Source: an uncultured Succinivibrionaceae bacterium
Lineage (GTDB): Bacteria; Pseudomonadota; Gammaproteobacteria; Enterobacterales; Succinivibrionaceae
NCBI GenBank assembly: GCA_944390105.1
Contig: CALXOV010000055.1
Coordinates: forward strand, 2,930-66,929
DNA: 64,000 nucleotides
Reading direction: 5' to 3'
Made by a program: the position numbers and the translations under genes. The first letter of the stretch is position 1. Each line of letters starts with the position of its first letter. The notes beneath the pieces were generated by a model. That model made no database searches. It worked only from the letters and a program-made list of their open reading frames with translations, and had not been told where the DNA came from. Positions 6,033 through 63,497 of this stretch are shown one piece after another.

Positions 6033-6130
6033 GACAACATCCTAAATTTGATTACTATTAATTTATATTGAACCCATCTAAGTTTACCCGATCTGCATCA
6101 CCATGCGGTAGACGGCCGGAAAAACTGTGA

Positions 6131-6170: not shown

Positions 6171-6198
6171 TGCTTTTCATATAGGCTGACGCACGCGT

Positions 6199-6909: not shown

Positions 6910-7031
6910 TTTAAAATCCCAGCTTGGAATGTGAAAAGTCAATATGCTCCGGCTCACCCACGGGATGAGCCGGAGCACCGGCATATTGTACTCTCAAAAC
7001 CTGCCTAAATTAAACCTTTTTAACAAAAGGT

Positions 7032-8195: not shown

Positions 8196-8229
8196 CGTAA
8201 ACTCTCCTGTCTATCGTATAAAAAACGAA

Positions 8230-9282
8230 TTAGATTAAATTCTGACGCCAATTTTCGTGCTCAATATACCACAAAACACATTGGCTCAAGCCCTGCTCCA
8301 AGCCAATCTGCGGGCAAAAACCTAGCTCTGCCGCCGCTTTGGTGCAATTTAAACTATAGCGCCGATCATGTCCTTTGCGATCCGCTGCCGACTGAATAAC
8401 TTTAGCAAATGGGGCTGCGCGTACAGCGAAGCTTTCAGGGAAACGGGCGACAAGCTCAGGACGCTTGGCAAAGATTGCACACAGCGCTGCGTACAAAGCC
8501 TGCAGAAGCTCGCGGTTAGTCAGTTCACAGCTTGCGCCTAAATTATAGACCGCTCCGGGCTGACCGTAACTTAGCACTAAGTCAATTCCCCGACAGTGAT
8601 CGCTGACATAAATCCAATCGCGCCGCTGCAGTCCATCGCCATAAACTGGCACCGGATGTCCGTGGAGAAGACAGTCAAGCGCTTTGGGAATAAGCTTTTC
8701 GGGGTGCTGATACGGGCCGTAATTATTGCTGCAACGAGTGAGCGTGACCTCAAGTCCATAAGTACGGGCAAAGGCACACACAAAATGTTCAGCCGCAGCT
8801 TTAGATGCGGCATAAGGAGAGTTGGGCTGCAGCGGTTGCGCTTCATCCCAAGGAACCTCGTCAAGGCGCAAAGAACCATAAACTTCATCAGTTGAGATCT
8901 GATGGAAGCGTCCGCCACGTTTACCATCCACAAAGACCGCCACCGCAGCCTCAAGCAAAGCTGTGGTCCCTGCGACATTATTACGGACAAAAGGAGCAGG
9001 ATCGGTGATTGAGCGATCGACATGGGTATGCGCCGCAAAATTGACAATAACGTCAATGTCCTCATCGGCAAGCAGCTGTTGCATTAGAGTTTTATCGCAG
9101 ATATCCGCCTGTATAAATGTAATGCGACCACTGTCGATAAGCGGCTGCAGATTATTAAGGCAGGCTGCATAATGCAAAGCATCGACTACGCACAGCGTAT
9201 CCTCTGGATGCTGTGTAGCATGCGCATACAGATAGTTAGTGCCGATAAAGCCGGCACCTCCGGTCACAAGGAGATGCGGCAT
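8230..9282 (-). CDS. rfbB: dTDP-glucose 4,6-dehydratase
   Basis: 350 aa. Rossmann motif VTGGAGFIG, ISTDEVYG, and catalytic YAASKAAAE (YxxxK). Confidence 0.85.
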   Translation of the reverse strand: MPHLLVTGGAGFIGTNYLYAHATQHPEDTLCVVDALHYAACLNNLQPLIDSGRITFIQADICDKTLMQQLLADEDIDVIVNFAAHTHVDRSITDPAPFVRNNVAGTTALLEAAVAVFVDGKRGGRFHQISTDEVYGSLRLDEVPWDEAQPLQPNSPYAASKAAAEHFVCAFARTYGLEVTLTRCSNNYGPYQHPEKLIPKALDCLLHGHPVPVYGDGLQRRDWIYVSDHCRGIDLVLSYGQPGAVYNLGASCELTNRELLQALYAALCAIFAKRPELVARFPESFAVRAAPFAKVIQSAADRKGHDRRYSLNCTKAAAELGFCPQIGLEQGLSQCVLWYIEHENWRQNLI

Positions 9283-46386: not shown

Positions 46387-47691
46387 ATGCATATTGTCTT
46401 TCCCCTGCCCGGCGGTAGCGAGGCCTTAAGCGCTGAGCTGGCGCTGGCGCCCTTAGGTCAAATCTTTGACAGCACGACCACTTCATATAAGTACTGGTGG
46501 TTTGCCGCTTTGCTGCAACTGCATCGCAGCGCCATGATTGAACTTAAAAGTAAGCATCTTCTCCAGCCTGCCGGCAAATTGCACCCTCTTGGATCGGATG
46601 CGGCTACTGCTGCTCCGGCGGAGACTTTGACCTTGCGCCATGGCCACACGCAGCTGCTCACCAAGCTTACCCAAGCCCCCCTTCCGGCAATCCCTTTTTG
46701 GCAACTGGCGGCCTTAATGACGGCTAAAGCGTGGTATCCACGCTGCTATTTCCGCCTGCGCTTTGGCAGTGCCGATCAGATCCCGCCGCTCTTGGATGCC
46801 TTAGCGCAGAAACTTCCGCTTAATCAAGCTGGCAGCGAAGAGGCTATCTACACGTTGCTCTGTCAGGCTGCAATTAGCGATGACAAGATCAAAGAACAGC
46901 TCTTAGAGCTTACCGTGCATGTTCCCTATCGCCTGCTATCACCTTGGATTTCTTACAAAAGTGATGGACAGGTGATTGCACAAAGTGCGCTGGAGCCTCA
47001 GGCGCTCTATCAGATTGAAGGCTCGCGGCGCGGCGAGCGCGCAGTACGCATTCATCCGCTATGGCAGGAGTATTTATTCGAAAATTACGCGGTGCTGCAG
47101 AATTTTACCGACTTGGCACTGGCTAAATACTTAGAAAAGCGCAATCCCAATGTGCCCAATATCATCAATAAACTGCATCCGCAGCACAATCGTGCCCCAC
47201 TTAGCTATGCCAAAAAATATTTTGATGTGTATCTGTCACAGTACCCGGCTGCGTGCTGCATTTATACGCAGCAGCCGCTGCCGCAGGCGTATGCACTTGA
47301 TCACTTCATCCCGTGGTCTTTTGTAGCGCATGATGAGCTATGGAATTTAGCGCCGATTGATCAGTCGAGCAACAGCAGCAAAAGCGATAAACTGCCGGAT
47401 TTAGCGCGTTTTCTGCCGCGTCTGGCGCAATTGCAGCAAGAGGCGCTGCGTGCCAATCTGCCAAAGCTTAAGACCTGCTCGCAAGGCTATTTAGTCAAAG
47501 CGCGCGACAGCTTAACGGATGGTTTGGGCAAGAGTATTGACGAATTAGCAGCCATGAGCCTATCACAATTTAAAGACTGCCTTGAGCAGGTGATCTATCC
47601 GCTGTATCTGCAGGCCCAGAGTCTTAACTTTCAGCCTTGGTCAGGGCCTGCAGCAGCTCCTCTTAAGAGTGCATGTAGTGATTACCCTTAG
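46387..47691 (+). CDS. HNH (His-Me finger) nuclease-domain protein with an uncharacterised N-terminal region of about 300 aa
   Basis: HNH motif LDHFIPWSFVAHDELWNLAPIDQSSNSSKSDKLP. Starts 10 nt after the GH84-like stop and has GGAGAA upstream. Confidence 0.6.
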   Translation: MHIVFPLPGGSEALSAELALAPLGQIFDSTTTSYKYWWFAALLQLHRSAMIELKSKHLLQPAGKLHPLGSDAATAAPAETLTLRHGHTQLLTKLTQAPLPAIPFWQLAALMTAKAWYPRCYFRLRFGSADQIPPLLDALAQKLPLNQAGSEEAIYTLLCQAAISDDKIKEQLLELTVHVPYRLLSPWISYKSDGQVIAQSALEPQALYQIEGSRRGERAVRIHPLWQEYLFENYAVLQNFTDLALAKYLEKRNPNVPNIINKLHPQHNRAPLSYAKKYFDVYLSQYPAACCIYTQQPLPQAYALDHFIPWSFVAHDELWNLAPIDQSSNSSKSDKLPDLARFLPRLAQLQQEALRANLPKLKTCSQGYLVKARDSLTDGLGKSIDELAAMSLSQFKDCLEQVIYPLYLQAQSLNFQPWSGPAAAPLKSACSDYP

Positions 47692-49891: not shown

Positions 49892-50223
49892 GTTGTCACC
49901 TTTTCCTATCTCAATGCAGTGTCTGCGGCCAACATCAAAACCGTATGCTCCGTCAGCGCAGCTTGTGGCCGCATTACCGCAGCAGGGCTTTGAGGCAAAT
50001 TTCCGCCTGCATTTTCATCAATATGCTCAGGCATTATAGCGCTCTGCCAAATTGTTATTTGTATTGCACTATTAAGGTGAAGACAAAATTCAAACACGCA
50101 CCAAAATAGCGCTTATTTAGTAGATATCATGCAACAACAGATAGTTAAAATGTATCAAAAAAGAAACTTACTTTAATAGTCTAATTTTCATCGGATTGAT
50201 TACAGATTTGCAAGACGATAATT

Positions 50224-53076
50224 CTACTCGCCATCATCCCCATTCAACTCACTATCAGATTTAGATTTTTTATCGCTATCTTCGCCAGCCAATTCACGAA
50301 TTGCTTCAAGTCCTTTAATAGACCCTTCACCCTCAAAATATTCTTTTAATCTATCCCTAACTGCAACTAAATTATTATGATAGCTTACGAGGTTTGATTC
50401 CATACATCTCATAGGATCGGTGTATTTGACGGCTTCATCCATAATATTCATACATTCATTATAATACAGAATACCCTCATGACTAATATTATCACCTTTT
50501 ACATAAAGAAAGTCAGGCTCCTGAGCACGATATTTAAGCGCTTCTAGAATTAAATAAGCCGCATTGTAGAATGATTTTTTAAAATTTTTTGTTTTATATT
50601 CATTTTTCATTAAATTAATGCCACACTTAATCATCAATAGTGCTATTTTTCTGTCAATAATATGCTTGCTACTAGGATAGTTATCCAGCATTTTTCCCAA
50701 TGCCAACGCATGGGTTCCCTTAAATAAAATCATATTTTTACAAAAAGTTTTATAAAATAAATCAAATAACCTTTTCAGCGCATCATCAGAAGAAAAAACA
50801 CTAGCCGCATAATTCCAAATTAAAGTTTTTTTGGGATCCTGTTCTAGGATATCCAAAATAATTTTCTTAAACTTTTCAGTTAAATTTCCACGCAAATAAG
50901 CAGCACATCTAGGTATAGCCTGATTTACAACATAACGTTTTGTATCGTAATCTAAGCGATCTATGATATCTAAAAATTTTTCTAATATTGCTATATACTC
51001 ATTAATGAATGTATCATATTCATTTTTATATTCTTCAACATTGATGGAACCATATTGGTCAAGTAAGAAACAATATTTTTCACTATTATCAATATTTTTA
51101 ACCTTATCATATGCATTAAAAAATTTAGAATTTGGTAATTTATTTAAGATCTTTCTAGTTAAAACTAACCCCTTAACTCTACGAGGTTGATAAAGACAAA
51201 CTTCTACCTCATTTAGTAAAGTTTTATATTTTTTAATAAAATCTTTCATTGTTAAAATAGCAGACCAACATTTTCTAAATTTAACATAGTCTTTGTCATA
51301 ACTTCCGATTGTAAATGGCTCACATTTTAAATCTGGAGGATAAGATAACCCTCTCCTAAATCTATCCATAATCTCTTGAAGAGTAATATTACTCATGGAG
51401 TTAAAATCGAAACATTGACCTTCTTTTAGTCTACGATCAATTTTGGAAGAAATATCAGCAGCAGCAAATTTAATAATTGCATAGCCCGAAGCCGCAGACA
51501 TCTGCACTGTAGTAACTAGCTTTACCTTGGTTTTACTTATAGTATTGAAAGGCACATAACCAGCTCTTAACTGATTTGTAGTACTGCCTTTATTAAATTT
51601 TCCTTTGGCAATAAATACCTCAAAGTTGGATACATTTTCCGGCAGATAGAAAGTTATGTCGGTAATTTCGGATGAATAGATCTTACCTGCTGGATATCCA
51701 TTCTTTAAAATACTCGGCTTTAGCAGAGATATCGGTTTTGGTTCATTTTGCCCTTTTTCGATTGCAAAAATCGACAGCTCATCTAATTTATCATTATATG
51801 ATGGTAATCCCCTGGCCACGCGCTGGGCAAATAATGCCGTTCCATCAGCAATATCATCTTTATTGGTATACCACACTCCTCTATGTGCATAATTATCCCC
51901 GAGATAGTTCATAAAAAGGCCATTAGCCAGTTCTCTCGCAATAAATTCACTGCTAAGAGGTCCAGTTACAATTAATGAAGCTAACTTTTCATTGCTGATA
52001 TTGTGCATAACAAAAGCAACAACAGCATCTAACCACGCTTTTTTATCATAAATACTGACATCTGTATTTGTTATATTATACTTTTGATTTTTTAAATCGA
52101 TTAATAAACTATTAATATCTACTTTATTATCTTCAACTATGTTATTATTTAAGTTGTTAAAATGCAAATTTTCCACTTTAACCCAGCGTTTATTCAAATA
52201 GAAAATATAATTCTTTTCTTCTGTTGGTAATTTCAATAAACTTGGCCAAATCTGATCACATAAATTTAAAATTTGACTTTTCTCAGTGGCATTATACTTA
52301 TAATTAGGAAGACTTTTATTAAGTCTATCAATAAATAATTCAAACAAGCTCATCCCATCAAAAGGAAATCTTTCGCGTTCCTCATCAGGAAAATCTCTAA
52401 TTGGCACATAGAATGTTTTATTATTTTCAAGAGTAGGAGATACGGCAAAACTTGAAAATTCAACGCAATCTAGACCTAAATATAAAACTCCAAGCTCTTT
52501 ATTGCTTCCTTCAGTAAATTGCTGAGCATAATAATCCTGATGGGCTGGACGCCGCAACCAATCCATTGCCGCGGCCACTGTTCGCCAAACTAATCTAACG
52601 TCTTTAAGACCAAGTATTCTCTTCAGATCCTGCAACAGATGCTCTCTTGCATTCATATTGATGAAATTAGGCACGGCTACAGCTACGTGTGAATCACTTC
52701 CTAATCTTGTTGGGAACAGCGCTTTAATATGCTCTGCCATCAACTGTGAGCAGTTTATTCCATCCCACTTGTGAACTATATCTATATCTTCCATCAGCTT
52801 TTCCCAGATTAAGCTGATAAGCGCACGTTTGCCGCTAAAGGAATCCAAAGTTTTGAGCGGGTAAGAAGGTGGGAATGGAAAACCTAAGCCGGTTCGATCT
52901 CTCTTAGCACTGAAGCCAGTAGTGGGCAAGGTATAAGCATCATCGCTTAAGATCACGCAGGATGGCTGAAAATCATTACTGCGGTCCAAGGTAAATTCAG
53001 GTACATTATCTTCAATTGTGCTGAAAGAATCCCGCAAGCCGAAAGCTGCCACACCTATATACTTAGAATTACCCAT
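50224..53076 (-). CDS. divergent Hsp70-like protein (actin-fold NBD plus beta-sandwich) with a C-terminal alpha-helical extension of about 400 aa
   Basis: VAVAVPNFINMNAREHLLQDLKRILGLKDVRLVWRTVAAAMDWL (aa 131-174) parallels Hsp70 AVITVPAYFNDxQRQATKDAGxIAGLxVLRIINEPTAAALAYG. LIVTGPLSS resembles LVGGSTRIP, and DDIADGTALFAQRVARG resembles NPDEAVAxGAAxQA. Residues aa 430-545 read like an SBD-beta domain. The start overlaps the upstream gene's stop by 8 nt. Confidence 0.6.
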   Translation of the reverse strand: MGNSKYIGVAAFGLRDSFSTIEDNVPEFTLDRSNDFQPSCVILSDDAYTLPTTGFSAKRDRTGLGFPFPPSYPLKTLDSFSGKRALISLIWEKLMEDIDIVHKWDGINCSQLMAEHIKALFPTRLGSDSHVAVAVPNFINMNAREHLLQDLKRILGLKDVRLVWRTVAAAMDWLRRPAHQDYYAQQFTEGSNKELGVLYLGLDCVEFSSFAVSPTLENNKTFYVPIRDFPDEERERFPFDGMSLFELFIDRLNKSLPNYKYNATEKSQILNLCDQIWPSLLKLPTEEKNYIFYLNKRWVKVENLHFNNLNNNIVEDNKVDINSLLIDLKNQKYNITNTDVSIYDKKAWLDAVVAFVMHNISNEKLASLIVTGPLSSEFIARELANGLFMNYLGDNYAHRGVWYTNKDDIADGTALFAQRVARGLPSYNDKLDELSIFAIEKGQNEPKPISLLKPSILKNGYPAGKIYSSEITDITFYLPENVSNFEVFIAKGKFNKGSTTNQLRAGYVPFNTISKTKVKLVTTVQMSAASGYAIIKFAAADISSKIDRRLKEGQCFDFNSMSNITLQEIMDRFRRGLSYPPDLKCEPFTIGSYDKDYVKFRKCWSAILTMKDFIKKYKTLLNEVEVCLYQPRRVKGLVLTRKILNKLPNSKFFNAYDKVKNIDNSEKYCFLLDQYGSINVEEYKNEYDTFINEYIAILEKFLDIIDRLDYDTKRYVVNQAIPRCAAYLRGNLTEKFKKIILDILEQDPKKTLIWNYAASVFSSDDALKRLFDLFYKTFCKNMILFKGTHALALGKMLDNYPSSKHIIDRKIALLMIKCGINLMKNEYKTKNFKKSFYNAAYLILEALKYRAQEPDFLYVKGDNISHEGILYYNECMNIMDEAVKYTDPMRCMESNLVSYHNNLVAVRDRLKEYFEGEGSIKGLEAIRELAGEDSDKKSKSDSELNGDDGE

Positions 53077-54736
53077 TCTGCACCACCCGATTTAGTAAGC
53101 TTGTTACAGCCATCTGCACTTGTTCAGATACATTTCTCCATTGGCCTATCTGCATGGGTACGTGACACAGCAATGCATGTTCTTTTTCCTCATTAAACGC
53201 AGATGGGGTAACTTTTAGTTCATAATTAAAAGTTAAACTTAATAAATGCCATTCCTGCAACTCCAAAAGCTCATAATCATTAATACATGACTCTGAGCTT
53301 TTGAGGATTTGTGACGCAACCTCAGCATTGTCCTCATGCGTGCTTAATGCATTATTCAATGAATACAACAATATTAAATAAGGCTTATCATCCTCATTCA
53401 ACGGTGTACACAGAATACATGACTTTGTTCCTAATATAGATGCGGTTTGCGCAGCCGTATTGTAAAGATCATCTTGCCGCGACGTTATAGGGATGCTGTT
53501 GACATCCGAAATAAAATCAATGACATATTCTCGTCCAGAGCTACCGCATAAATAAAATGAACCTGGCGGCAATGAATGATCTAGTAATACCCCCTGTCTA
53601 TTTTCCTTTCTTATCTTTAAATTAGACGTTGCAATCAGTTCCAAGGTGAAATTAGGATTTGATGAATTTTCATTTGGTAATACATACAGAGCGGATGCCA
53701 TCAGCAGACATGATAGATCGGAGGAAGTTATATACAGCCAATGCAACAGATTATCGACCCTTCTATTATGTCTCAGCAAGTCCTGATAATACTGCCATAC
53801 TTTTCTATACCTTAAATCATTCTGTAGCACATAATTAGGAACTATAGCCGCAGCAGGCCGGCGCACATATGTAAATTCAGCTCTATGCAAGCCATCAATA
53901 CATTGTTGCTCAAAGTGTTTGACTAAATCTTCATTAGAAGATTTATGGTTTTCTTTGAGAAAATTAGTGCAGGCTAAGATACATCTGCGCAAAAAATCTT
54001 TTAATACTTGATTTTCAAGCAGATCATAATTTTCAGTTCGCACTACCGCCAAAATCTTACTATCGTTAGCTGCAGCTTTCTGGAAAATACTCTTGCCTGG
54101 CTGCTTGACCAACCAGCGCAGGCTGTTCACATTAACTTCATTGACTTTATCTAATTTCTGTAATCTATCTTCACGTTTTAAAGTCTTTCTTATACCGCTC
54201 AGCACTAATGGTAGAAATTTTGTAAATTCATTACTAATCGTGACTATAAGGGGCTTATAGATCTCTTCATCTTCTTGAACCATTTTCACTATTATTTCCG
54301 GCAAATCATCATAGCGGAACAGTTCATGCTCAAATTTAACATTAACATTATTCGGATCTGATTTGTACGCAAGATAATCAAAAAATCCTATCCAGCTTTT
54401 TAGACATTCTTTAAGTTCTTCACTAAAATTTTGATCTCCCAAGTAGTGAAAATTCTTAAACCTTATCTTAGCCCATTCAATGCATAGATTATTTTCAATG
54501 CTACTATTATGCTCTGAATAAGGCATTGCCACCAACATATACCAGCGGTGATTTTTATAATATTTCCTTCCTATGCAGGAATATTCTGTAAGTAAGTTAA
54601 GTTGATTTAAATCATCTTGAGGAACTTCAAGTAATACACTTCCTAAGAAAGAGTAATCTTGCACAGCACCATTAATTGACCTGCTAGATTTAAATTCCCA
54701 TTCCCAAGGATAAGTTTTTACTATTATTTCATGCAT
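53069..54736 (-). CDS. McrC/DUF2357-like partner protein of the McrB-like NTPase
   Basis: Sits immediately downstream (3-nt gap) of the McrB-like gene. RTENYDLLENQVLKDFLRRC (aa 233-252) resembles the (S/T)xDxxENRxxKxFL motif of DUF2357/McrC-like proteins. I could not find a D...(D/E)xK motif by eye. Confidence 0.5.
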   Translation of the reverse strand: MHEIIVKTYPWEWEFKSSRSINGAVQDYSFLGSVLLEVPQDDLNQLNLLTEYSCIGRKYYKNHRWYMLVAMPYSEHNSSIENNLCIEWAKIRFKNFHYLGDQNFSEELKECLKSWIGFFDYLAYKSDPNNVNVKFEHELFRYDDLPEIIVKMVQEDEEIYKPLIVTISNEFTKFLPLVLSGIRKTLKREDRLQKLDKVNEVNVNSLRWLVKQPGKSIFQKAAANDSKILAVVRTENYDLLENQVLKDFLRRCILACTNFLKENHKSSNEDLVKHFEQQCIDGLHRAEFTYVRRPAAAIVPNYVLQNDLRYRKVWQYYQDLLRHNRRVDNLLHWLYITSSDLSCLLMASALYVLPNENSSNPNFTLELIATSNLKIRKENRQGVLLDHSLPPGSFYLCGSSGREYVIDFISDVNSIPITSRQDDLYNTAAQTASILGTKSCILCTPLNEDDKPYLILLYSLNNALSTHEDNAEVASQILKSSESCINDYELLELQEWHLLSLTFNYELKVTPSAFNEEKEHALLCHVPMQIGQWRNVSEQVQMAVTSLLNRVVQNG

Positions 54737-54739
54737 ATA

Positions 54740-56968
54740 TTACTCGTCAGCTCTATATAAGCCTACCCAATTGAAAATTCCTGTTTCCTGAGAGCTTATA
54801 TCAATTGACTGACTGATGGATTCAGCTAACTTAGCGTCACTAAGCTTAGTCGCTACAAACTCTTTTAAGGCATTGAGCTCATTGCGTTTGCTGTTAACAT
54901 CGACACCTCTCAATTTAGGCAGGATCTTATGTTCAATTTGATCTGACATGGCATATTTCAAACTGGTTTGAATGTTCACTCCATCGTGGGGATAATTCAT
55001 AATATAATCCCGTATGGAATTATCCACACGCAAACCAAAAGGCCGGCCTAAATCTTTCATGAGTTTGGATAATTCAACTATCCAATTATTGACATTGACC
55101 TTATCTTGGTTATTATCAAAGGATTTTTTAATCCATTTGCACCATGTTTCATAATTGATAAAATATTTATTTTCATTATCTGAAGCAATTTGAGTCTCAT
55201 TGTCCACTTTATTGGGTCTACCGAATCTAATAACATCTGAGCGATCCAGCACTTTATCTGCTAAGGTCTGCGTTGTCTCATCTTCATTCATAGTACCAAC
55301 AAAAAGAATATTTTTCGGTACCCAGAGCTTAAGATCATTCTGCACATTTAATGATATTTCAGCTTGAGATATTTCCTCATCAGTAATATTCTTTACATTT
55401 CGCCTAAATTCTAATTTAGATAAAAACTCCGAGAAATAATATTCAGTTCGTGCCAAATTCATTTCATCTAATAAAACTAATAGCATTGGTGAATTATCGC
55501 TCAAGTCTTTAATAACATCATTGTTATCAAAGTATCGTATGTTTTTATTATTTAACTTGTTTTTTCTCCTAAATACATAATCATAGGCATTTAAGCTCTT
55601 AGCTAAATCGGTTGCTTGATATTTTCCAGTTAAGTAATTATAGAACCCTAATAAATCCTGTGGAGAATCCCAACGCGGCTGAACTGAAATAATTAGATTA
55701 TTCATGCCGAAGTATTTTGCATACTGGGTAGGCAGCAACGACTTACCAGTACCTGACAGTCCAGCTAAAACTGTCAAAGGACTTATATCTTGAATCTTCA
55801 GACTGGTATGAAAAGATTTGATCAGTCTTTGGCTGAAAATTAATTTATTGTTTTTTAAATAATCGTAAAAATTATCTAAAGCTTGTAATTCATTTTCCGG
55901 CTTACGATTATTTGTTTTTTGCGTGAAAGATAAACATGAAGGAATGCGATATAAGTCAGCGAAAGCATCAGTTTCCTTGTTAAGCTTAAGCTTATCATTC
56001 TCATCGTGCAGCCGCTGATTTTCTTTCTTAAGTTGATTTTGATCAAAACATCCTTGAATATATTTCTGAATAAGATATGCCGTATCCCGGATGTTGTTGC
56101 TAAGCTGTTCGTTGAGCACATGCATAACTGCTTTATGCTGCGCATCAAGATCCTTTTTCAGACTGCTATCTAAGACCTCTGCTTGATTAAGTAGCGCCTT
56201 CCCTAAGGCTTGACCGTGAGATTTAAAGACGTTATCAAAAGATTGGGCTAATGCATTACCTTGGTTTTTAAAGACTTCATCAAAAGATTGGGCCAATGAT
56301 CTGCCCTGATCCGTCATCGCCTGTTTAAAACCGTCTGCCAGCGAATTTTCATCAAAGCTGAAATTATCCTTGTTAAACGCTTCAGTTAAGATACTCTGCA
56401 AGTTTGAGGCAATTTCTTTATCCACATGCAACAAGCTTTGCTCTGCGCGCAAATCCTCAATTTTCTGTTCTAGTTCAGCTAACTCTGCCTGCTGCTGCTT
56501 TATCAGCGCGCGCTTTTCCTCATATTCATTCAGCTCCCGCTTAATGCGTTCATATTCAGCGCTTTTATCCTTTAATTCGCTTAATTCGCGCTCTTTAGTT
56601 TCAATCTTTAATTTTAGGTCCGTCAAACGTTCTGTATATTGCCTTTCAAGCTGTTCTAAGTTATTTCTTAATTGATCAAGATCTTTGTCTTGCTGCACAG
56701 CTTCAGCATAATTCTGTTTAAGGCGAATTAGCTCTTCATGAATTTGATCCTTTTTAGTCTGCATTACTTGGACTTGGTTGCGCAGATCCGTTAGCTTTTT
56801 GGCATTAAGATCCATAGCATCTGCAAATTTCTTTGAATGCAAAAAGATACTAGGAATTTTGTTATAGTTTGAAATAGTCACCATCGCATAGATTAATACA
56901 ATGATGGCAACAATAAGCCCGACCAATGGCAAGTACAGCCAAAAATTTCCCGCAAAGCTTAAATCCAT
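54740..56968 (-). CDS. membrane-anchored coiled-coil protein fused to a McrB-like AAA+ (AAA_5) NTPase
   Basis: TM helix FWLYLPLVGLIVAIIVLIYAMVTI (aa 9-32), then heptad-rich E/K/Q/L sequence at about aa 55-335. Walker A GLSGTGKS (aa 403-410, nt 55739-55762) and Walker B LLVLLDEMNLARTEYYFSEFLSKLE. FVGTMNEDETTQTLADKVLDRSDVIRF corresponds to the McrB MNTADRS...RRF region. Confidence 0.75.
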   Translation of the reverse strand: MDLSFAGNFWLYLPLVGLIVAIIVLIYAMVTISNYNKIPSIFLHSKKFADAMDLNAKKLTDLRNQVQVMQTKKDQIHEELIRLKQNYAEAVQQDKDLDQLRNNLEQLERQYTERLTDLKLKIETKERELSELKDKSAEYERIKRELNEYEEKRALIKQQQAELAELEQKIEDLRAEQSLLHVDKEIASNLQSILTEAFNKDNFSFDENSLADGFKQAMTDQGRSLAQSFDEVFKNQGNALAQSFDNVFKSHGQALGKALLNQAEVLDSSLKKDLDAQHKAVMHVLNEQLSNNIRDTAYLIQKYIQGCFDQNQLKKENQRLHDENDKLKLNKETDAFADLYRIPSCLSFTQKTNNRKPENELQALDNFYDYLKNNKLIFSQRLIKSFHTSLKIQDISPLTVLAGLSGTGKSLLPTQYAKYFGMNNLIISVQPRWDSPQDLLGFYNYLTGKYQATDLAKSLNAYDYVFRRKNKLNNKNIRYFDNNDVIKDLSDNSPMLLVLLDEMNLARTEYYFSEFLSKLEFRRNVKNITDEEISQAEISLNVQNDLKLWVPKNILFVGTMNEDETTQTLADKVLDRSDVIRFGRPNKVDNETQIASDNENKYFINYETWCKWIKKSFDNNQDKVNVNNWIVELSKLMKDLGRPFGLRVDNSIRDYIMNYPHDGVNIQTSLKYAMSDQIEHKILPKLRGVDVNSKRNELNALKEFVATKLSDAKLAESISQSIDISSQETGIFNWVGLYRADE
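56222..56311 (-). repeat. imperfect 45-nt tandem duplication inside the coiled-coil region (15-aa units LAQSFDEVFKNQGNA / LAQSFDNVFKSHGQA)
   Basis: Units at 56222-56266 and 56267-56311 both begin TTTAAAGAC..ATCAAAAGATTGGG on the plus strand. Confidence 0.8.
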
Positions 56969-57035
56969 CTTTAATCCCTTTTATATCAAAGTTAACTCTA
57001 AATTCTGCCGATAAATTTATTAGTAAACTGAAGAA

Positions 57036-58574
57036 CTAGTCTTCAGCCTCCAGTTGGTCTAATGTCTTCACATACTGCTGAGCAGTACTCTTAAAATGAT
57101 CTAATTGCGTAGCATCAAGTCCTGCATTGGTACTCAGATTTGCAATATCATCTTCACTCATTGCATCGAACTGCTTTATGGTTGCGTCTAATGCTTGCGT
57201 ATTAGCACGCAGCTGCTCAGCTGTATTGATGCTTATCTGAAGCGCTACGGCTGCAGACACCTTCTGCTGTGACTCAGCTAGACTTGCGATAATTGCATTC
57301 AGCTGCGTATTTTGCTGATTAAAAGCATCAGTAGCTCGTTGCAGTTGCTGTGTATATGGATCTAAGTTAGTTTTATTGTTTATCTCAGTAACTGCACTTT
57401 GATAATTTGCTGCAGTTTTTACAACTTGTTCACGTAAGATGACAAGTTCATCCAGCATAGAGCTTAGAGTTACCTGTTTCTCTTGACTATTGCTTGGCGC
57501 ATTGTGCCTATCGTTAGTTCCTACCAACTGGTTCAAGTTAGTAATCGCCGTGCTGATATTTTCTGCAGATGAAGCCAGCTTGCTATTAGTTCCAGTAAAA
57601 TCCACTTGCTGCAGTTGTTCATTTTTAGCTTGCAGAGCCTTAATCTCTGCTGTTAAGCTGTCATGTAACTGTGTGTATGATCTGTATTCACTGCTGTAAT
57701 TATTCAACACAGTATCTAATGTATTCTTTTGTCCTGCAATATCATTCACTTTTTTATTAAATTGCTCTGAAGCAACGCGGATATTCTTAGCATAATGCGC
57801 AATAGAGTTCGGTTCATTCTCATCTAGCTGATCATTTAACTTATCATTTACGGTCATGTAGTCATTGATAATGCCACTGATTCTAGTCTGCATATCAGAT
57901 AACGATTTTGTCAGCACATTTATCGAACTGTCCTCTTGTTTAAGTGCTGCAAACCGCTTTTCCAGGGAAGTTAACTCTATTTCAGTTGCTTCTTTTTTAC
58001 TCAACAATCCATTTACTTCATCGGTTAAACTTGATGCTGTCCGTTTAAGCGTAGTTTGCTCATTTCTTAAGGACGTTATTTCTTTATTCAACGTCTGCTT
58101 ATCAGCCTGTAGGGAAGCTAGCTCATTTGTTAATTTAACCTTACTGGCATTAAGCTCTCCGACTTCTGCCTTCAAGTCTTCATAACGAGCCAATACAGCT
58201 ACAGCTTCATCGTAAGCTTGTTTTTTAGCGTCATACTCTGCGGCGATTGACTTAAGCTCAGCACGATTCTTTTCCAGCCCAAAAGAAATTTCATTAAATT
58301 CTTGGCGCATCCCGGGCAGTTCGGAAATGTAGTGCTGATAGTCGGCCAGATCCTGCTCTAGCTGCTGCTTTTCTTCGATGAAAGTATTGCGCTGCCATAA
58401 CTCGATGGCAAAGCAACAGATACAGAAAATCGTCACCGCCGAAATACCGCAAATTAAGCCGATAAAACGGGATTTGGGCATTTTTTTATCAATAGATAAA
58501 TCATAAAATGCATCGTTATCTTCCATGTGCGATAAATCAGCAGAGTCAGACTGTGCATTAAAATCCGATTTCAT
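57036..58574 (-). CDS. membrane-anchored long coiled-coil protein (512 aa) with no enzymatic motif
   Basis: TM helix FIGLICGISAVTIFCICCFAIELW (aa 37-60). The rest is Q/L/N/E/A/T-rich heptad-like sequence. The start overlaps the helicase stop by 17 nt and is preceded by GAGGGA. Confidence 0.6.
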   Translation of the reverse strand: MKSDFNAQSDSADLSHMEDNDAFYDLSIDKKMPKSRFIGLICGISAVTIFCICCFAIELWQRNTFIEEKQQLEQDLADYQHYISELPGMRQEFNEISFGLEKNRAELKSIAAEYDAKKQAYDEAVAVLARYEDLKAEVGELNASKVKLTNELASLQADKQTLNKEITSLRNEQTTLKRTASSLTDEVNGLLSKKEATEIELTSLEKRFAALKQEDSSINVLTKSLSDMQTRISGIINDYMTVNDKLNDQLDENEPNSIAHYAKNIRVASEQFNKKVNDIAGQKNTLDTVLNNYSSEYRSYTQLHDSLTAEIKALQAKNEQLQQVDFTGTNSKLASSAENISTAITNLNQLVGTNDRHNAPSNSQEKQVTLSSMLDELVILREQVVKTAANYQSAVTEINNKTNLDPYTQQLQRATDAFNQQNTQLNAIIASLAESQQKVSAAVALQISINTAEQLRANTQALDATIKQFDAMSEDDIANLSTNAGLDATQLDHFKSTAQQYVKTLDQLEAED

Positions 58575-61500
58575 CGTGGTCCCTCATCATTTGCTGCCAT
58601 TTATCTAAAACCTGCTGAGCACATTGCGCAGGTTCGGCATAAACCTTTCTTCCCCAAAAACGTAATACTTCATAGTGCAGCGCGCCCATCTGCAGATCAC
58701 GCAGGTAATCATCAGCCTTCCGCTGTCCCATGGCATCTACATGACAGTTGCCGTCCACTTCAACATCCAAAAAGAGTTTACGTTCTTCATCAATAAAGGC
58801 AAAATCCAAGCGGCGATTAATCGCGGGCAGCGGATATTGAACCTTAGGTTTTGGCAGTGGCAATTTTTTAAGATGCCACAGCATCAAACGTTCAAGCGGA
58901 GATTCGGTAAGAGCCATGTCATCATCATCATCAAGACTGCCCTCGGCCCCACCGACAGCCGGCAAAGTGCGGATAAATTCAGCATCAGACATTAGTGCAG
59001 CCTCAGTATTGCCAACGACGCACACCAGTGAACGTGCTCGAGAAACTGCAACATTCAGAATATTTTTATTGCCGCTGATAAAGGCGTTTCCGAAACGCGA
59101 GGTCAAGCACAAACTCAGGATCACAATATCCCATTCAGAGCCCTGTGCTTGATGCACTGACTGAATAGTTAAATCCCCAAGTCCTTGCTGGACAGACTCG
59201 TCTCCGGCAGTCTGCAAATGAACTGCCAATAGGCTGTCAGCTGCAACTGCTTGTCTAATCCTGTCCACTTGAAGTTTATACGGAGACAAGATTCCTACAG
59301 TGCCCCCAAAGTCTGCATCTGCATAAATTGTGTGCAGCAGTTCAAGCACTGCCTTAATCTCAGCTGCATTGCTACGTGAGGAATTAGTACTGCTTTTTTC
59401 GGTCTGATCTGCTGTCTCATACCACTTTATGCCGTATTCCATATGCTTCGGCAACGGCAGATCAGCTTCGCTGCAGCGTGAAATGAGCATCCCGTCATAA
59501 CACAAGTCTGAAATATACTGCGTAATGCGGTTGCAGGAGCGATATGACTGGATTAATGACAATTTTTCCGCTCCCGGCGTCAAATAAGCAAAAGCGTAGA
59601 GTGATTTAATATCCTGCCCTAATTCAGGAAATGCATTGCACAGCCACAGTCTACTTTCAACCGCGTTCATCTCTAAGCCGTTGTTGCGCATGATTGAATC
59701 CTGCTTAGATACGCTGACGGCATTAACGATCGGCCCTAATTGATTTGGGTCACCGATAACAGCCGCCGCTTTAGCGCGATACAGCAAAGGAATGGCAGCC
59801 ACAAAATCAAACTGCGAGCTTTCATCAAAAATAACCAAATCAAACATGCCGGCTATTAAGGGAAATAAGCTGCGGGCAGAAGCTGTTGTGCATAGCCATA
59901 TCGGCTTATGCTGCAGAATTTGTTTAACCTTGTGGCTAAGGTGAGTGCAAAAGTCAGCGTCAGTCAGTAATTTGTCATTAAAATCATCTTTTTGCTTAGC
60001 ATCGCTATAAGCGTATTGCTTTAATTCGTTCAGATAATTTTGCCAATCCTTGGCATTATCGCATACATGCTCTGATGACCACACACAGTAGCGGATGGCT
60101 CGTTCATAGGCATCATGTAGCTTTTTTTGTTGCACTGCAAAATCTGCTTCTAGCTGCTCAATATCAGCATCGGCAGATAAAGTTCTGAGCTGCTCGGCAC
60201 AGAGGTTTTTGCGCAAGCTAAGAAGCAGATAATCATTTATTATCTTAAAGTTGCTGCTGTGCTTAACTAAGGCGTCAGTCAAAACTGATCCACCACTTAT
60301 CCGTAAGCGCAGCTTGGTCATAAAGGCGGTGATGCGATTTTTAAGGTTGAAAAAACTGCGTTCATCCTGACATCTACAGTACTGCGCAAAATATTGCATG
60401 CATTGTTGCAGATGATCGCTGCTAAACTTAGTAAGTTGTGGCTCAAGCTGTGTAAACACTGTTGCCAAATGCTTAAAACTGTTTTTCATCGTGTCACGGC
60501 AGCTGTCGTAATGCGCTATCTCAGTTTTAAGATTTTCTACGACATCTTTACGCTTTAAATGCTCCTGCAACTGTGTACGGAGCTGATTAAACTTGGCGAT
60601 GTCATTAAATGAAGCGTCTGTTGTCTCTGTCCTTTTACTTAACCCCATGGCCACAGAGTACAACGTGGCATCAGTGCCTTCTTTGCTGTTGGCCCGTATC
60701 GTTAGGTCTGTGGCATGCTCAATTTTCTGCAGCCTTTCAATCAGTGCATTAATAGCCTGATGGTTATATGAGGTAATTAACACGCTCTTACCCTGGGCAG
60801 CGGCATTTAAAGCCGCTGCCGCAATGACCTGCGTCTTACCGGTACCTGGTGGCCCCTGTAGCACGGTGATCCTATTGTCTAAGATCGATGCCACCGCAAG
60901 TTGCTGCTCAAAATTAAACGGCAGCTTATCTCTATCCGTACAAACAAGTTCAGGGTAGATACCCACAGCTGGTGCTGAATTATAGAGAAAAAGCGGCAAA
61001 ACCGAGTTTTTTAACTGCTGGCTTTGTGCGCGACTTATATTCTTTAAATCATGCTGAATGGATTTTAAAAAGGGATTTTCCCTAAATTCACCTAGCAGTG
61101 CGACGTTATAAATTCCATCATGGCGCAGACTGTTGAGTGAACTTAAGTTATAAATATTCAGTGGTTGCTGCGGCTGAAAATAGGTCTCGACCAACACCTT
61201 AAAGCATGACCAGCTATCAGCTTTAAGGAAATTGCTCATTGGATCAGCCTCTTCTGAAATAAGGCTGTCTACGCATACTTTGTATCTGCGCTTAAACTCC
61301 TCTGCAGCATGATCTTTATTGGCAAATTTAAGCTTAAACCAACTTTCATTGATTTTCGGAATTAAGTCTTCTTCAAAACTATTAAGTTTAATGCTGTTAG
61401 ACAGTATTGAAGCGTCGTATATGCGTACGTAAAAAATCGGGACAATCCGCTCATCAACAACATCTACCGGATACCCGAGGGTCATTGTTTTCCTGCCAAA

Positions 61501-62082
61501 ATCAAATTGTTGGCAATCACTGCCTGCCATAACGCTATCACTTACCGAAGTAAGTTGCATTGAACTGCCATAGGTATGCTTATTCCACCGCGGCAGTTCG
61601 TCGATGTTGATGAAGGTTAGACCCTGATCTGATTTTTTATATTCCTGAGTTACCGATCCTTCACAGTTTTTTAAATCAATATAAGCGTTGATCAGTTGTT
61701 TAAATGAACTTTCATCAAGCTTCTGTTCAAACAGCTCATCCTCACTTAAAAACTGCTTTAAGAAATCCTTATCATTTACATTGGCCGAGATTAACTCCCG
61801 CCATGAGTAATGGCGCCGCGGCGAAGTGACGACATAAAAACAACCGGAAGGAGTTATTGTACGGAGTTTGTCCTGTCGAATTAAAAGATAAAATGCGGTA
61901 TGCGCCTGAATATAACTTAAATGAGCTTGAGTGCGTAAAATAGCAATGATGCTGGACTTATCCATCACCTGAGAGCGCGTCTGCATTACTTTCCATGCGC
62001 GCTGATAAATTTGAGAACTCGATAATGGAACTATATCATATTCATTATCACTGTCCTCGGAATAGGATAACGCATCTAGCAT
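58558..62082 (-). CDS. SF1 (Upf1/DNA2-like) helicase fused to a C-terminal Vsr/DUF559-like endonuclease domain, with an N-terminal region of about 390 aa of unknown function
   Basis: Motif I GPPGTGKT (aa 410-417, nt 60832-60855), motif II FDLVIFDESSQ (DESSQ at nt 59812-59826), QSYRS, VHQAQGSEWDIV and NVAVSRARS. C-terminal SPLERLMLWHL...RLDFAFIDEERKLFLDVEVDGNCH...DDYLRDLQMGALHYEVLRFW (aa 1060-1160, nt 58603-58905) matches the DUF559/Vsr-fold pattern. Confidence 0.8.
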   Translation of the reverse strand: MLDALSYSEDSDNEYDIVPLSSSQIYQRAWKVMQTRSQVMDKSSIIAILRTQAHLSYIQAHTAFYLLIRQDKLRTITPSGCFYVVTSPRRHYSWRELISANVNDKDFLKQFLSEDELFEQKLDESSFKQLINAYIDLKNCEGSVTQEYKKSDQGLTFINIDELPRWNKHTYGSSMQLTSVSDSVMAGSDCQQFDFGRKTMTLGYPVDVVDERIVPIFYVRIYDASILSNSIKLNSFEEDLIPKINESWFKLKFANKDHAAEEFKRRYKVCVDSLISEEADPMSNFLKADSWSCFKVLVETYFQPQQPLNIYNLSSLNSLRHDGIYNVALLGEFRENPFLKSIQHDLKNISRAQSQQLKNSVLPLFLYNSAPAVGIYPELVCTDRDKLPFNFEQQLAVASILDNRITVLQGPPGTGKTQVIAAAALNAAAQGKSVLITSYNHQAINALIERLQKIEHATDLTIRANSKEGTDATLYSVAMGLSKRTETTDASFNDIAKFNQLRTQLQEHLKRKDVVENLKTEIAHYDSCRDTMKNSFKHLATVFTQLEPQLTKFSSDHLQQCMQYFAQYCRCQDERSFFNLKNRITAFMTKLRLRISGGSVLTDALVKHSSNFKIINDYLLLSLRKNLCAEQLRTLSADADIEQLEADFAVQQKKLHDAYERAIRYCVWSSEHVCDNAKDWQNYLNELKQYAYSDAKQKDDFNDKLLTDADFCTHLSHKVKQILQHKPIWLCTTASARSLFPLIAGMFDLVIFDESSQFDFVAAIPLLYRAKAAAVIGDPNQLGPIVNAVSVSKQDSIMRNNGLEMNAVESRLWLCNAFPELGQDIKSLYAFAYLTPGAEKLSLIQSYRSCNRITQYISDLCYDGMLISRCSEADLPLPKHMEYGIKWYETADQTEKSSTNSSRSNAAEIKAVLELLHTIYADADFGGTVGILSPYKLQVDRIRQAVAADSLLAVHLQTAGDESVQQGLGDLTIQSVHQAQGSEWDIVILSLCLTSRFGNAFISGNKNILNVAVSRARSLVCVVGNTEAALMSDAEFIRTLPAVGGAEGSLDDDDDMALTESPLERLMLWHLKKLPLPKPKVQYPLPAINRRLDFAFIDEERKLFLDVEVDGNCHVDAMGQRKADDYLRDLQMGALHYEVLRFWGRKVYAEPAQCAQQVLDKWQQMMRDHDEIGF

Positions 62083-62143
62083 ATCATCATTATAATCGTG
62101 TGAATTTTTTCAAAGTTATTTTAAAAAGCAATTATATGTATAA

Positions 62144-62185
62144 ATTATAGCACCAGTAGCTTTTACAAAATAGCTATAATTTACC
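62144..62185 (-). promoter_or_regulatory. candidate extended -10 promoter for the island operon
   Basis: The minus strand reads GGTGcTATAAT (TATAAT at 62144-62149, TG at 62151-62152), about 60 nt upstream of the helicase ATG. The -35 element is poor. Confidence 0.3.
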
Positions 62186-62331
62186 CTCCAAAATTATACG
62201 TATATCTTTTATCCGACACTGCAATACCGCTCCCGCTCACTGCACTCAGCTCCTATATCGGCTCTACTGCGCTGCAGCAATCTGCTACCTACTAATTTAA
62301 GCTTAGAATGCTTAGTAGCGGGATTTTGCGG

Positions 62332-63360
62332 CTAATTGTTGACTGCTTTCACCTGCGCCAAAGCATCCACTCTATCTTCATAATACGGGCACAGCACCGC
62401 ATGCGCTACCTGCAGGCGCTCTAAAAGTTCCTGTGCACTGTGTTGCTGCCGGTATGCCGCCTCTAACGGATAAAGCGGCAGCACCTGAAAGATATTCACT
62501 CGAAAACCATCTGGCAACTGATAACTCTGAGCCGCACGTGGATAGTCGCCTAAGGCCGTAAGCATCAGCGCACTGGCGCGCACCGCCGGCACCAAGGGCG
62601 CACCGTTATCAACGGTATAGCCAAAACCGACGAAATGATCACTAAGGCGTATCTGCGCAGTTAAATCCAAAAGAAACTTAAACGGGTAATAGTAAGCAAG
62701 CTCACTTCTATCCACGGGCCAAGCCTTAGGCAAAGCAAGAGCCAGCTCAAGACAGGAATTTTCCTTAGCATCAGCACCGGGCGGCACCGCTTGGCGCAAT
62801 GCAGACAGCCCCTTGGTTACTACTAAGTAATAATCGTGACCATCCTGCGGGGCAAAAACGATAAGCTCAACCTTATCGCCTTTAAGCGTGGCATGCACCT
62901 TACCAAAATGCTGCGACGCATGCGCATCAAAGGCGGCACTTTCTGCCGCATTAAGCGATCGCACCGCCGCAGCTTTATAGATAAGTTGCAGCTGTGCTTC
63001 AATACGCGCGAAAAGCTCGGGCTGAGTAAGCGGAACAAAACGCCGCGCCCGCTCAAGGCGCAACAGCGCATCCTGCAGCAGATTTTCTTTAATTAAAGTC
63101 AGTGCCTTAAGATACAGATACTGCGCGTCATTGCCTCCCTCATCTTCAAAAGTATTGAGAATATCTTCGGCGCGGCGCAGGCAGAAATCGTCTTGCTTTT
63201 GATTATGCAAATTTAAATACGCGCGCACTAAATACAGTGCTAAAGTCAAATCAATACTATCTTGTGCCTCAAGCATATCTACCGCCTGTTGATAAGCACT
63301 TTTTACTAAAAGTTCATCAAGCTTGGTGCACAGCGCGGTTTTTTCATCATTGGTTAACAT
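62332..63360 (-). CDS. SUFU-like (suppressor-of-fused domain) protein with an N-terminal helical/TPR-like region
   Basis: The C-terminal half (YYLVVTKGLSAL...CLELALALPKAWP...YYYPFKFLLDL) resembles bacterial SUFU-domain (PF05076) proteins. Start chosen at ATG 63358-63360 (MLTNDEK...), preceded by AAGGGAAAG. The ORF-track start is 63417. Confidence 0.55.
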   Translation of the reverse strand: MLTNDEKTALCTKLDELLVKSAYQQAVDMLEAQDSIDLTLALYLVRAYLNLHNQKQDDFCLRRAEDILNTFEDEGGNDAQYLYLKALTLIKENLLQDALLRLERARRFVPLTQPELFARIEAQLQLIYKAAAVRSLNAAESAAFDAHASQHFGKVHATLKGDKVELIVFAPQDGHDYYLVVTKGLSALRQAVPPGADAKENSCLELALALPKAWPVDRSELAYYYPFKFLLDLTAQIRLSDHFVGFGYTVDNGAPLVPAVRASALMLTALGDYPRAAQSYQLPDGFRVNIFQVLPLYPLEAAYRQQHSAQELLERLQVAHAVLCPYYEDRVDALAQVKAVNN

Positions 63361-63497
63361 GAAATGCTTTCCCTTAATCTCAGGCTTCACTAAATACGGC
63401 AAAGCTCTAAGCGACATCTGCCATGACTACAGTTCAGGCAGCACGCTTAGAGCTCAGCTTCCCCGCACCAGTTTAGGTGCAGGCCTTTAGGCTAATG

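Follow-up and report, generated by a model that had tools for sequence, protein, structure and literature searches.

A block of five genes in a 64,000-nucleotide stretch of DNA from an uncultured Succinivibrionaceae bacterium (contig CALXOV010000055.1, positions 2,930 to 66,929; this whole stretch is called the window below) is likely to constitute a complete Type III-B CoCoNuT, acquired horizontally by one strain as a 12.3-kb accessory island and serving most likely in the defence against phages or mobile elements. Type III-B was defined computationally by Bell, Sahakyan, Makarova, Wolf and Koonin (eLife 2024; PMC11090510). In their description it comprises CnuH, in which a UPF1-like helicase contains a helical insertion and is fused directly to a Vsr-like nuclease; a separate CnuA that consists of coiled coil only; the coiled-coil NxD GTPase CnuB, whose signature usually has E or D next to it; CnuC, a DUF2357 protein with inactivating replacements in its nuclease; and a separate CnuD, which combines Hsp70-like nucleotide-binding and substrate-binding domains (NBD and SBD) with HEAT-like repeats, whereas TerY-P is lacking (PMC11090510).

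All of these traits were found in the window block: the NxD signature and the coiled coil of CnuB, the DUF2357 domain of CnuC and the missing nuclease motif behind it, the UPF1-like helicase with its insertion and fused Vsr domain, and separate CnuA and CnuD proteins, with neither a separate CnuE nor TerY-P. The gene order cnuH-cnuA-cnuB-cnuC-cnuD is shared as well. The host, a gut bacterium that resembles Anaerobiospirillum, is gammaproteobacterial (Succinivibrionaceae-like), whereas the published Type III-B systems are mainly alphaproteobacterial (PMC11090510). The original prediction, made from the sequence without database searches, had named CoCoNuTs as relatives of the block; that identification was right, and the gene set and order sharpen it to Type III-B (PMC11090510).

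The five genes are co-directional and tightly coupled translationally. The junctions computed from the open reading frame (ORF) coordinates, a 17-nt overlap between cnuH and cnuA, gaps of 67 nt between cnuA and cnuB and of 3 nt between cnuB and cnuC, and an 8-nt overlap between cnuC and cnuD, reproduce exactly those read initially (Table 1). All motifs quoted at that stage are present in the translations: GPPGTGKT (K416), DESSQ, VHQAQGSEWD, VAVSRAR, GLSGTGKS (K409), LLDEMN, GTMNEDE, DRSDVIRF and TENYDLLENQVLKDFL. The low G+C fraction (GC) noted for the block is borne out by measurement (0.382 versus 0.505 in window positions 1-50000), and it declines along the block, from 0.437 in CnuH to 0.337 in CnuD. 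A scan for promoters and terminators yielded only weak consensus promoter matches, at sites no commoner than in shuffled sequence.

Table 1. Coordinates (window positions) of the island, its genes and their domains, and the adjacent SUFU-like gene. ORFs are from the six-frame ORF list; TM, transmembrane; KD19, maximum of the Kyte-Doolittle 19-residue window.
Feature	Position	Strand	Description and basis
Strain-specific insertion (island)	50054-62362	.	12.3 kb; replaces 143 bp of the empty site
AT-rich region upstream of operon	62083-62362	-	presumed promoter region, from reading of the sequence; inside the insert
cnuH	58558-62082	-	1174 aa; UPF1-like SF1B helicase with N-terminal extension, helical insertion and C-terminal Vsr/DUF559-like nuclease
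CnuH helicase core, residues ~385-1030	58993-60930	-	includes helical insertion ~455-720
CnuH Vsr/DUF559-like PD-(D/E)xK nuclease domain, residues ~1060-1165	58588-58905	-	acidic residues intact
cnuA	57036-58574	-	512 aa; N-terminal tail, one TM helix, ~450 aa of coiled coil, nothing else
CnuA TM helix, residues 37-57	58404-58466	-	KD19 2.55; preceded by KKMPKSR
cnuB	54740-56968	-	742 aa; short N-tail, TM helix, ~300-aa coiled coil, McrB-like AAA+ GTPase with NxD signature
CnuB TM helix, residues ~15-33	56870-56926	-	KD19 2.79
CnuB coiled-coil stalk, residues ~45-340	55949-56836	-	family profile and heptad test
CnuB GTPase domain and C-terminal region, residues 385-742	54743-55816	-	Walker A G403-K409, Walker B D501/E502, N561-E-D563
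cnuC	53069-54736	-	555 aa; McrC-like adaptor, DUF2357, C-terminal region without catalytic lysine
CnuC DUF2357 (McrC N-terminal) domain, residues 163-317	53786-54250	-	invariant E241/N242 (ENYDLLEN)
CnuC C-terminal region	53357-53629	-	suspected degenerate PD-(D/E)xK remnant; alignment column statistics
cnuD	50224-53076	-	950 aa; Hsp70-like NBD, beta-sandwich SBD, long helical C-terminal repeat region
CnuD actin/Hsp70-type NBD, residues 1-425	51802-53076	-	AlphaFold2 model and Foldseek
CnuD beta-sandwich (SBD equivalent), residues ~428-560	51397-51795	-	strand-rich in AlphaFold2 model
CnuD helical C-terminal region, residues ~596-930	50287-51291	-	all-helical, pLDDT mostly >85 from residue 680
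SUFU-family protein	62332-63417	-	Pfam SUFU 2.4e-21; between two acetolactate synthase operons

The island and its empty site

The block was delimited by comparison with a strain that lacks it. Two contigs of the same species, found by an exact-sequence look-up of the neighbouring IlvH, share the core genes at 99.5-99.8% nucleotide identity; in both, the interval from the SUFU-like gene to ilvI is free of the cassette. In blastn, one of them aligns to the window at 99.5% identity up to position 62363 and resumes at 99.8% from position 50053. Among the 143 bp that are replaced is the end of the SUFU-like gene, approximately its last 10-15 codons. Hence the block proposed at 50100-62230 is real, but the unit that moved is slightly larger and corresponds to the strain-specific insert. 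Fixation of the block throughout the lineage, which had been named as an observation that would speak against a defence system, is contradicted by the empty site in the same species. With a filled and an empty site in one species, the cassette is therefore a self-contained, transferable 12.3-kb unit. In line with the original reading that a methyltransferase is missing, the insert holds the five genes only; a TerY-P triad, a signal-peptidase gene and a pilus gene were likewise not found in it.

The flanks consist of core genes, namely tig-clpP-clpX-lon and two paralogous acetolactate synthase operons, and the 90%-identity cluster of the ClpX protein includes one from a "Candidatus Anaerobiospirillum" metagenome-assembled genome (MAG). 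A megablast search with flank and block against 5,426 E. coli genomes gave no match. The SUFU-like gene itself marks a hotspot. In a related organism, of which the flanks are about 80-82% identical to those of the window, a cassette with 50-63% amino-acid identity is present on the other side of this gene, that is upstream instead of downstream (SUFU at L002 16799-17830), and its GC of 0.52 compares with 0.55-0.57 in its own flanks. Given this position across the SUFU-like gene, the level of identity and the GC, the two cassettes are probably independent insertions at one hotspot.

Self-mobility of the island was rejected, as the insert was found to lack an integrase, a target-site duplication and a terminal inverted repeat, and only chance 7-8-mers turned up. 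The window holds no tRNA gene, so that tRNA-linked integration was dropped as well. The insert has no Rfam family at the gathering score. A recent duplication of ilvH around the island does not apply either, as the two small-subunit genes are paralogues with 54% identity.

CnuH, the helicase and sole evident nuclease

The first gene had been read as a superfamily 1 helicase with a Vsr/DUF559-like C-terminus, and the searches agree with this. Pfam assigns AAA_11 (1.4e-21) and AAA_12 (5.5e-29) to the helicase. The matches to residues 1087-1160 are weak, with MTES_1575 below its cutoff (2.4e-5) and DUF559 just above it (5.9e-5). A profile of 23 homologues finds Sen1, Upf1, IGHMBP2 and DNA2 as the best structures in the PDB (E-values 1e-49 to 1e-38), and its C-terminus matches the DUF559 structure 3hrl_A at 2.7e-9. 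Among the homologues the helicase residues Q393, GPPGTGK 410-416, D753/E754/Q757 and R848 are invariant, and so are D1093, D1106, E1108, D1110, G1111 and R1128 of the nuclease, while H1114 is conserved in at least 90%. In view of these invariant motifs both enzymatic parts look active. The Vsr motif, moreover, is present in all 23 CnuH proteins that were found among 40 non-redundant loci with CnuB, CnuC and a profile-confirmed CnuD. About 335 residues, helical or coiled-coil-like, separate the Walker A motif (410-417) from DESSQ (753-757); they include a heptad-positive segment (512-547) and a stretch without Pro or Gly (599-726). Residues 1-385 can be aligned with the homologues. Bell et al. 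also ascribe a Sul7s-like winged helix-turn-helix and an OB fold to CnuH (PMC11090510).

CnuB and CnuA, an McrB-like motor and a second coiled coil

The McrB-type NTPase proposed for the third gene is supported by a profile-profile comparison: the CnuB family profile aligns with E. coli McrB (hhalign probability 90.8%, E=1.2e-6) over Walker A, Walker B and the signature Asn, where NTAD of McrB corresponds to NED with a deletion of one residue. The two Walker motifs and N561-E-D563 are invariant columns in the alignment of homologues. Of the 120 closest homologues 109 contain the string GTMNEDE, and N-x-D-[DE] is present at this position in every one of them. Pfam AAA_5 is matched by 33 of 36 family members. 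A phmmer search of the PDB with the GTPase domain alone returned nothing. CnuB is also hit by a PADLOC candidate model, PDC-M26A (1e-36), over residues 200-459, chiefly in the distal part of the coiled coil and in the linker that leads to the GTPase. None of the PDC-M26 partner models matches CnuC, and none of the literature searched deals with PDC-M26.

Coiled coils were expected in both the second and the third protein, and they were judged by a crude heptad test against shuffled sequences and by profile matches to rod proteins. Positions ~35-350 of the CnuB family profile match the rods of myosin, Rad50 and SMC; the protein has a heptad segment at residues 56-159 and a 173-residue stretch free of Pro and Gly (40-212). 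CnuA has matches of the coiled-coil type only, to the rods of SMC, Rad50, LmuB and JetC, and its heptad segments are spread over residues 147-509. At four loci from Phycisphaeraceae MAGs the CnuB ORF ahead of CnuC is giant (1327-2295 aa), perhaps as a fusion of CnuA with CnuB or through a long N-terminal extension.

CnuC, a putative adaptor

CnuC carries the predicted DUF2357 domain (Pfam 1e-9, 38.5 bits at a cutoff of 23.3), and in related loci its gene always lies directly downstream of cnuB. In the C-terminal half E378, G382 and a hydrophobic-(E/D)407-hydrophobic motif are kept among 30 homologues, and in this alignment no Lys is conserved two residues past the acidic position 407. CnuC therefore lacks the (D/E)xK motif and, judged from this alignment, is nuclease-dead, in agreement with the initial impression that a nuclease motif is not visible. 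With no further gene in the insert, the Vsr-like domain fused to the helicase is the only evident nuclease, again as proposed. The same conclusion was drawn for the type as a whole: all CnuC proteins of Types II and III lack the catalytic motif, which makes the Vsr domain the effector of Type III-B (PMC11090510). In addition, an N-terminal immunoglobulin-like beta-sandwich and an inactivated but still present PD-(D/E)xK fold have been ascribed to CnuC (PMC11090510).

CnuD, an Hsp70 fold without Hsp70 sequence

The Hsp70-like NBD, beta-sandwich and helical tail envisaged for the fifth gene emerge from structure prediction. AlphaFold2 with an alignment of 64 sequences gave a model with pLDDT 84.8 and pTM 0.76; with only 3 sequences the pLDDT was 48.6 and the model unusable. 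A word-index search returned only 2 relatives, and an exhaustive profile search of 1.84 billion cluster representatives returned 275. Foldseek places near-full-length DnaK on top of the PDB matches (4b9q_A, E=1e-13); together with 7ko2_B and 7kru_B these range from 1e-13 to 2e-12 over 630-720 aligned columns, with a target-normalised TM-score of 0.60 for 7kru_B. They are followed by NBD-only structures of DnaK and mortalin, and then by actin, MreB and MamK. The 64-sequence profile, searched against PDB sequences, reached only E=0.099 for the best Hsp70-like chain. On the strength of the model and its DnaK matches, we regard the predicted Hsp70 fold with helical repeats as confirmed, without detectable membership of the sequence in Hsp70. 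The helical C-terminal region corresponds to the HEAT-like repeats of Bell et al. (PMC11090510). By eye, VAVPNFINMNAREHL resembles ITVPAYFNDAQRQAT, WRTVAAA stands in place of NEPTAAA and a GGG-T phosphate-2 loop is missing; such degenerate nucleotide motifs have already been published for CnuD (PMC11090510).

Taken over all five proteins, the Pfam families that had been anticipated were recovered in part: AAA_11/AAA_12, DUF559 and DUF2357 directly, but AAA_5 only via homologues of CnuB and the relation to HSP70 only via the predicted structure.

Membrane anchoring of CnuA and CnuB

A TM helix had been predicted at the start of both coiled-coil proteins and was found in both (Table 1), and in the other three proteins of the block the 19-residue maximum never exceeds 1.6. 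These helices are a trait of the whole family and not of this locus. An N-terminal hydrophobic helix is present in 104 of the 120 closest CnuB homologues, where the exceptions are mostly short fragments, and in the set of 40 non-redundant loci a TM helix was called for 34 of 40 CnuB proteins and for 24 of 27 proteins at the CnuA position. The same scan of nine Type III-A/II-like loci gave CnuB proteins without a TM helix. Neither the eLife main text nor the preprint of Bell et al. mentions TM helices for Type III-B; TM segments are brought up there only for the FtsB-like CoCoPALM clade, EssC, ShdA and one 4-TM protein (PMC11090510). Of the three features that the original prediction had listed as additions to the published description, the anchoring is thus the one that is absent from the main text, whereas the degenerate Hsp70 motifs and the nuclease-dead CnuC had already been described.

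Simple charge rules offer a hint at the topology. The N-tail of CnuB comprises about 9 residues and is nearly free of Lys and Arg, and Lys plus Arg are more abundant on the C-terminal flank in 52 of 58 proteins, which predicts an N-out/C-in topology with stalk and GTPase in the cytoplasm. CnuA has a tail of about 26 residues that usually ends with Lys or Arg. Its net charge difference (C minus N) is negative in 28 of 33 proteins; by Lys plus Arg alone the ratio is 18:5 with 12 ties. This tentatively suggests N-in/C-out, with a periplasmic coiled coil. Since the rules are simple and the coiled-coil flanks highly charged, the opposite topologies are offered as a hypothesis and not as a finding.

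If the opposite topologies are taken at face value, Type III-B could be a trans-membrane device, in which CnuA and CnuB touch only via their TM helices and an event at the envelope is coupled to an McrB-like motor in the cytoplasm, which in turn licenses the helicase-nuclease. We consider this rather unlikely. Were it true, the trigger could be, for example, phage adsorption, genome injection or periplasmic damage, a mode of sensing infection that has been proposed for no McrBC relative and that would contradict the published idea of a pairing of the CnuA and CnuB coils.

The TM helix followed by a coiled coil, a feature of CnuA and CnuB alike, also raises the question whether the block has to do with immunity at all. 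In the sister clade CoCoPALM the NxD GTPase carries, as a fused domain, an FtsB-like combination of TM segment and coiled coil (PMC11090510), and by analogy the N-terminus could point to a function in the envelope, in division or in pilus assembly. CoCoPALM is tied to signal-peptidase and pilus-assembly genes (mentioned in PMC11090510), and such genes are absent from the insert and from the recurrent neighbours of related loci; an FtsB/DivIC match in Pfam was found neither for the window CnuB nor among the 25 commonest families of 36 homologues. Moreover, a helicase-Vsr gene together with an Hsp70-like one is the hallmark of CoCoNuT Type III, and the block is missing from a conspecific strain. 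A machine of the CoCoPALM type is therefore very unlikely.

In seven cyanobacterial loci the place of the single CnuD of ~800-950 aa, behind CnuB and CnuC, is taken by two genes of ~470-570 aa; these loci may correspond to Type III-C. Several of the CnuB proteins in question also begin with a TM helix, and membrane anchoring may extend beyond Type III-B.

Relatives, plasmids and neighbours

In 42 of 46 loci the gene that follows cnuC is recognised by the CnuD profile. Many of the loci with CnuB, CnuC and CnuD are alphaproteobacterial, and the distribution across phyla is patchy. Relatives of CnuB are located on 30 plasmids, 11 of them conjugative, including those of S. meliloti GR4, R. leguminosarum, R. 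tropici CIAT 899, Synechocystis PCC 6803 and enterobacteria. On plasmid p2 of R. leguminosarum OyaliB (NZ_CP071401.1 323122-333418) the same five genes, with locus tags J0664_RS31040-31060, have a Shedu nuclease gene directly upstream and, two genes beyond Shedu, a gene for a BPTD_3080 restriction endonuclease. At 37 related loci none of the 115 nearest neighbours is conserved; subunits of Type I restriction-modification (R-M) systems, a mad2-like protein, DUF559 proteins and IS110/IS21 transposases recur. In phage records only two weak, partial AAA+ matches were obtained. Together, these observations fit an accessory, horizontally moving conflict system.

The plasmid copies, and the insertion without a recombinase of its own, would also be expected of a selfish addiction or stabilisation module that mobile elements keep because its loss is toxic. 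However, five large genes (~3,900 codons) are a costly way to achieve this, nothing in the block resembles the pair of small genes of a toxin-antitoxin system, and the chromosomal copy analysed here lies outside any recognisable mobile element, which makes such a module highly improbable. As UPF1-like helicases and Hsp70 are classical components of quality control, the block might alternatively be a housekeeping or stress module for RNA and protein quality control at the membrane, with no role in conflict. Such a module would hardly be strain-variable, of atypical GC, plasmid-borne, patchy across phyla and accompanied by R-M, Shedu and transposase genes; furthermore, the catalytic motifs of the Hsp70-like protein look degenerate by eye and the only enzymatic output is a nuclease. 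We give this explanation very little credence. The envelope, quality-control and addiction explanations are all disfavoured by the gene content and the empty site.

RefSeq labels the OyaliB p2 orthologues as AAA domain protein, hypothetical, 'chromosome segregation ATPase-like protein', DUF2357 protein and hypothetical, and the name 'chromosome partitioning protein ParA' given to CnuB relatives on enterobacterial plasmids is probably a misnomer. A different gene order, B-C-D-H with the helicase-Vsr gene last, was seen in two Anaerobiospirillum MAGs and in four loci from Verrucomicrobiota, Kiritimatiellia, Planctomycetota and Akkermansia; CnuB, CnuC and CnuH are larger in the two MAGs. Hence the genus to which the window organism belongs also contains a divergent lineage of this system. 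In the related cassette across the SUFU-like gene, CnuH is called as two ORFs (L002 4980-5714, 244 aa, and 5813-8554, 913 aa), which may reflect a frameshift or pseudogene or an error of assembly. Two further contigs carry this cassette, and their CnuH ORFs (974 and 913 aa) reach the contig edge and so neither confirm nor refute the split. Finally, a gene at 46387-47691 (+) encodes 434 aa with a domain of the HNH_4 endonuclease family (9.4e-8). It is convergent with ilvH, the 3' end of which it overlaps by 29 nt; it is also present in the empty-site strain and is thus outside the island.

Comparison with known systems

Type III-A has the NxD coiled-coil CnuB, the UPF1-like CnuH and the Hsp70-like and helical-repeat domains in common with the window block, but there the Hsp70-like part is fused to CnuC (CnuCD), a separate double-HEPN CnuE acts as the effector and TerY-P is usual. 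EcoKMcrBC of E. coli K-12 shares the McrB AAA+ core, with a partner that has the McrC N-domain (DUF2357) encoded directly downstream. The window block differs from it in having NxD instead of NxxD, in the replacement of the reader of modified DNA by a TM helix and coiled coil, in the loss of the (D/E)xK lysine from the McrC-like protein and in three extra genes. With CoCoPALM (mentioned in PMC11090510) the block shares an NxD McrB-like GTPase after a TM helix and coiled coil, whereas the FtsB-like N-terminus and the gene association of that clade were not detected here.

Other likenesses are more distant. Shield ShdA, with its TM helix, long coiled coil and RmuC-like nuclease, embodies the same idea of a membrane-anchored coiled-coil stalk in an anti-phage system with a PD-(D/E)xK nuclease, either carried or recruited, an analogy drawn from the description in PMC11090510; the likeness is one of architecture, and Shield, with ShdA as its single core protein, has no McrB-like NTPase and a nuclease of another family. 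Mokosh shares only the superfamily 1 helicase region, to which the PADLOC matches of CnuH to MkoA (3e-52) and MkoC (6e-46) are confined, and the block has no PLD domain or MkoB-like gene. The validated defence systems Druantia I and II were reclassified as Type IV CoCoNuTs in a 2025 preprint (PMC12458937). They have inactivated coiled-coil homologues of CnuB and superfamily 2 helicases of the YprA type, whereas the motifs of the window CnuB are intact.

A number of points weigh against the identification of the block as a Type III-B defence system. The assignment to the type is one by components and gene order. The window CnuB has no match in Pfam, and CnuD has none in Pfam, NCBIfam or PADLOC. 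The family profile of CnuC does not align significantly with E. coli McrC in hhalign and finds nothing in the PDB; the protein is called McrC-like because of its DUF2357 domain and gene position. PADLOC, the use of which had been recommended as a check, did not call the system and reported only the matches of CnuB to PDC-M26A and of CnuH to MkoA/MkoC. The enrichment of defence genes among the neighbours is modest and comes without a baseline. A periplasmic CnuA coil would make the proposed pairing of the CnuA and CnuB coiled coils impossible. Lastly, the role in defence is a case of guilt by association, as we found no experimental study of Type III-B in the literature, in keeping with the earlier belief that no such system has been characterised experimentally. 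Nevertheless, we hold a Type III-B CoCoNuT with a function in defence to be the likely identity of the block.

A possible mechanism

How such a system would work can be sketched from McrBC biology and from the fusion of CnuC and CnuD in Type III-A. CnuB would form an McrB-like ring, and CnuC would gate the NTPase of this ring in the manner known from McrBC (Niu et al. 2020, cited after PMC11090510); the stalk would tether this ring to the inner membrane, probably along with CnuA. In view of the anchoring, the predicted McrB-like ring would then have to work at the inner membrane. CnuC and CnuD are one polypeptide in Type III-A (PMC11090510), and CnuC, no longer cutting, would act as the adaptor that couples the ring to CnuD. 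The latter would be responsible for the recognition of a ligand, either nucleic acid or a phage or unfolded protein. Upon activation, the 5'-3' helicase CnuH would translocate on single-stranded nucleic acid and its Vsr-like domain would cleave. Bell et al. favour RNA as the target of CoCoNuTs (PMC11090510). Because the sole nuclease is a PD-(D/E)xK enzyme of the Vsr/DUF559 type and there is no HEPN domain, we lean slightly, and with low confidence, to invading DNA or single-stranded DNA near the membrane as the target of Type III-B.

With the same sensors, the activated CnuH could also degrade the nucleic acid of the host indiscriminately and thereby bring about dormancy or death, that is act as a toxic effector in abortive infection. 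The insert encodes no specificity domain such as a reader of modified bases or a methyltransferase partner, as would be expected in that case, and the account in PMC11090510 includes a proposal by Bell et al. of an echeloned backup for CoCoNuTs in general that resembles programmed cell death. Yet that backup depends on HEPN and CARF, both missing from Type III-B. Targeting of self and of non-self are indistinguishable from sequence. We regard abortive infection as possible, if doubtful; it is a sub-variant of the proposed defence function and no true alternative.

Implications

The block is a gammaproteobacterial addition to the Type III-B class as already described; what is new are the TM anchoring, the boundaries with the empty site, the CnuD model and the tractable orthologues. 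The filled and the empty site in one species provide a natural comparison, and the plasmids of R. leguminosarum OyaliB, R. tropici CIAT 899 and S. meliloti GR4 place the system in cultured, genetically tractable carriers. The anchoring, being family-wide, constrains the mechanism of Type III-B, in which the coils of CnuA and CnuB may even be located on opposite sides of the membrane. Should the membrane tether turn out to be indispensable for function, it would connect McrBC-derived immunity with what happens at the cell envelope.

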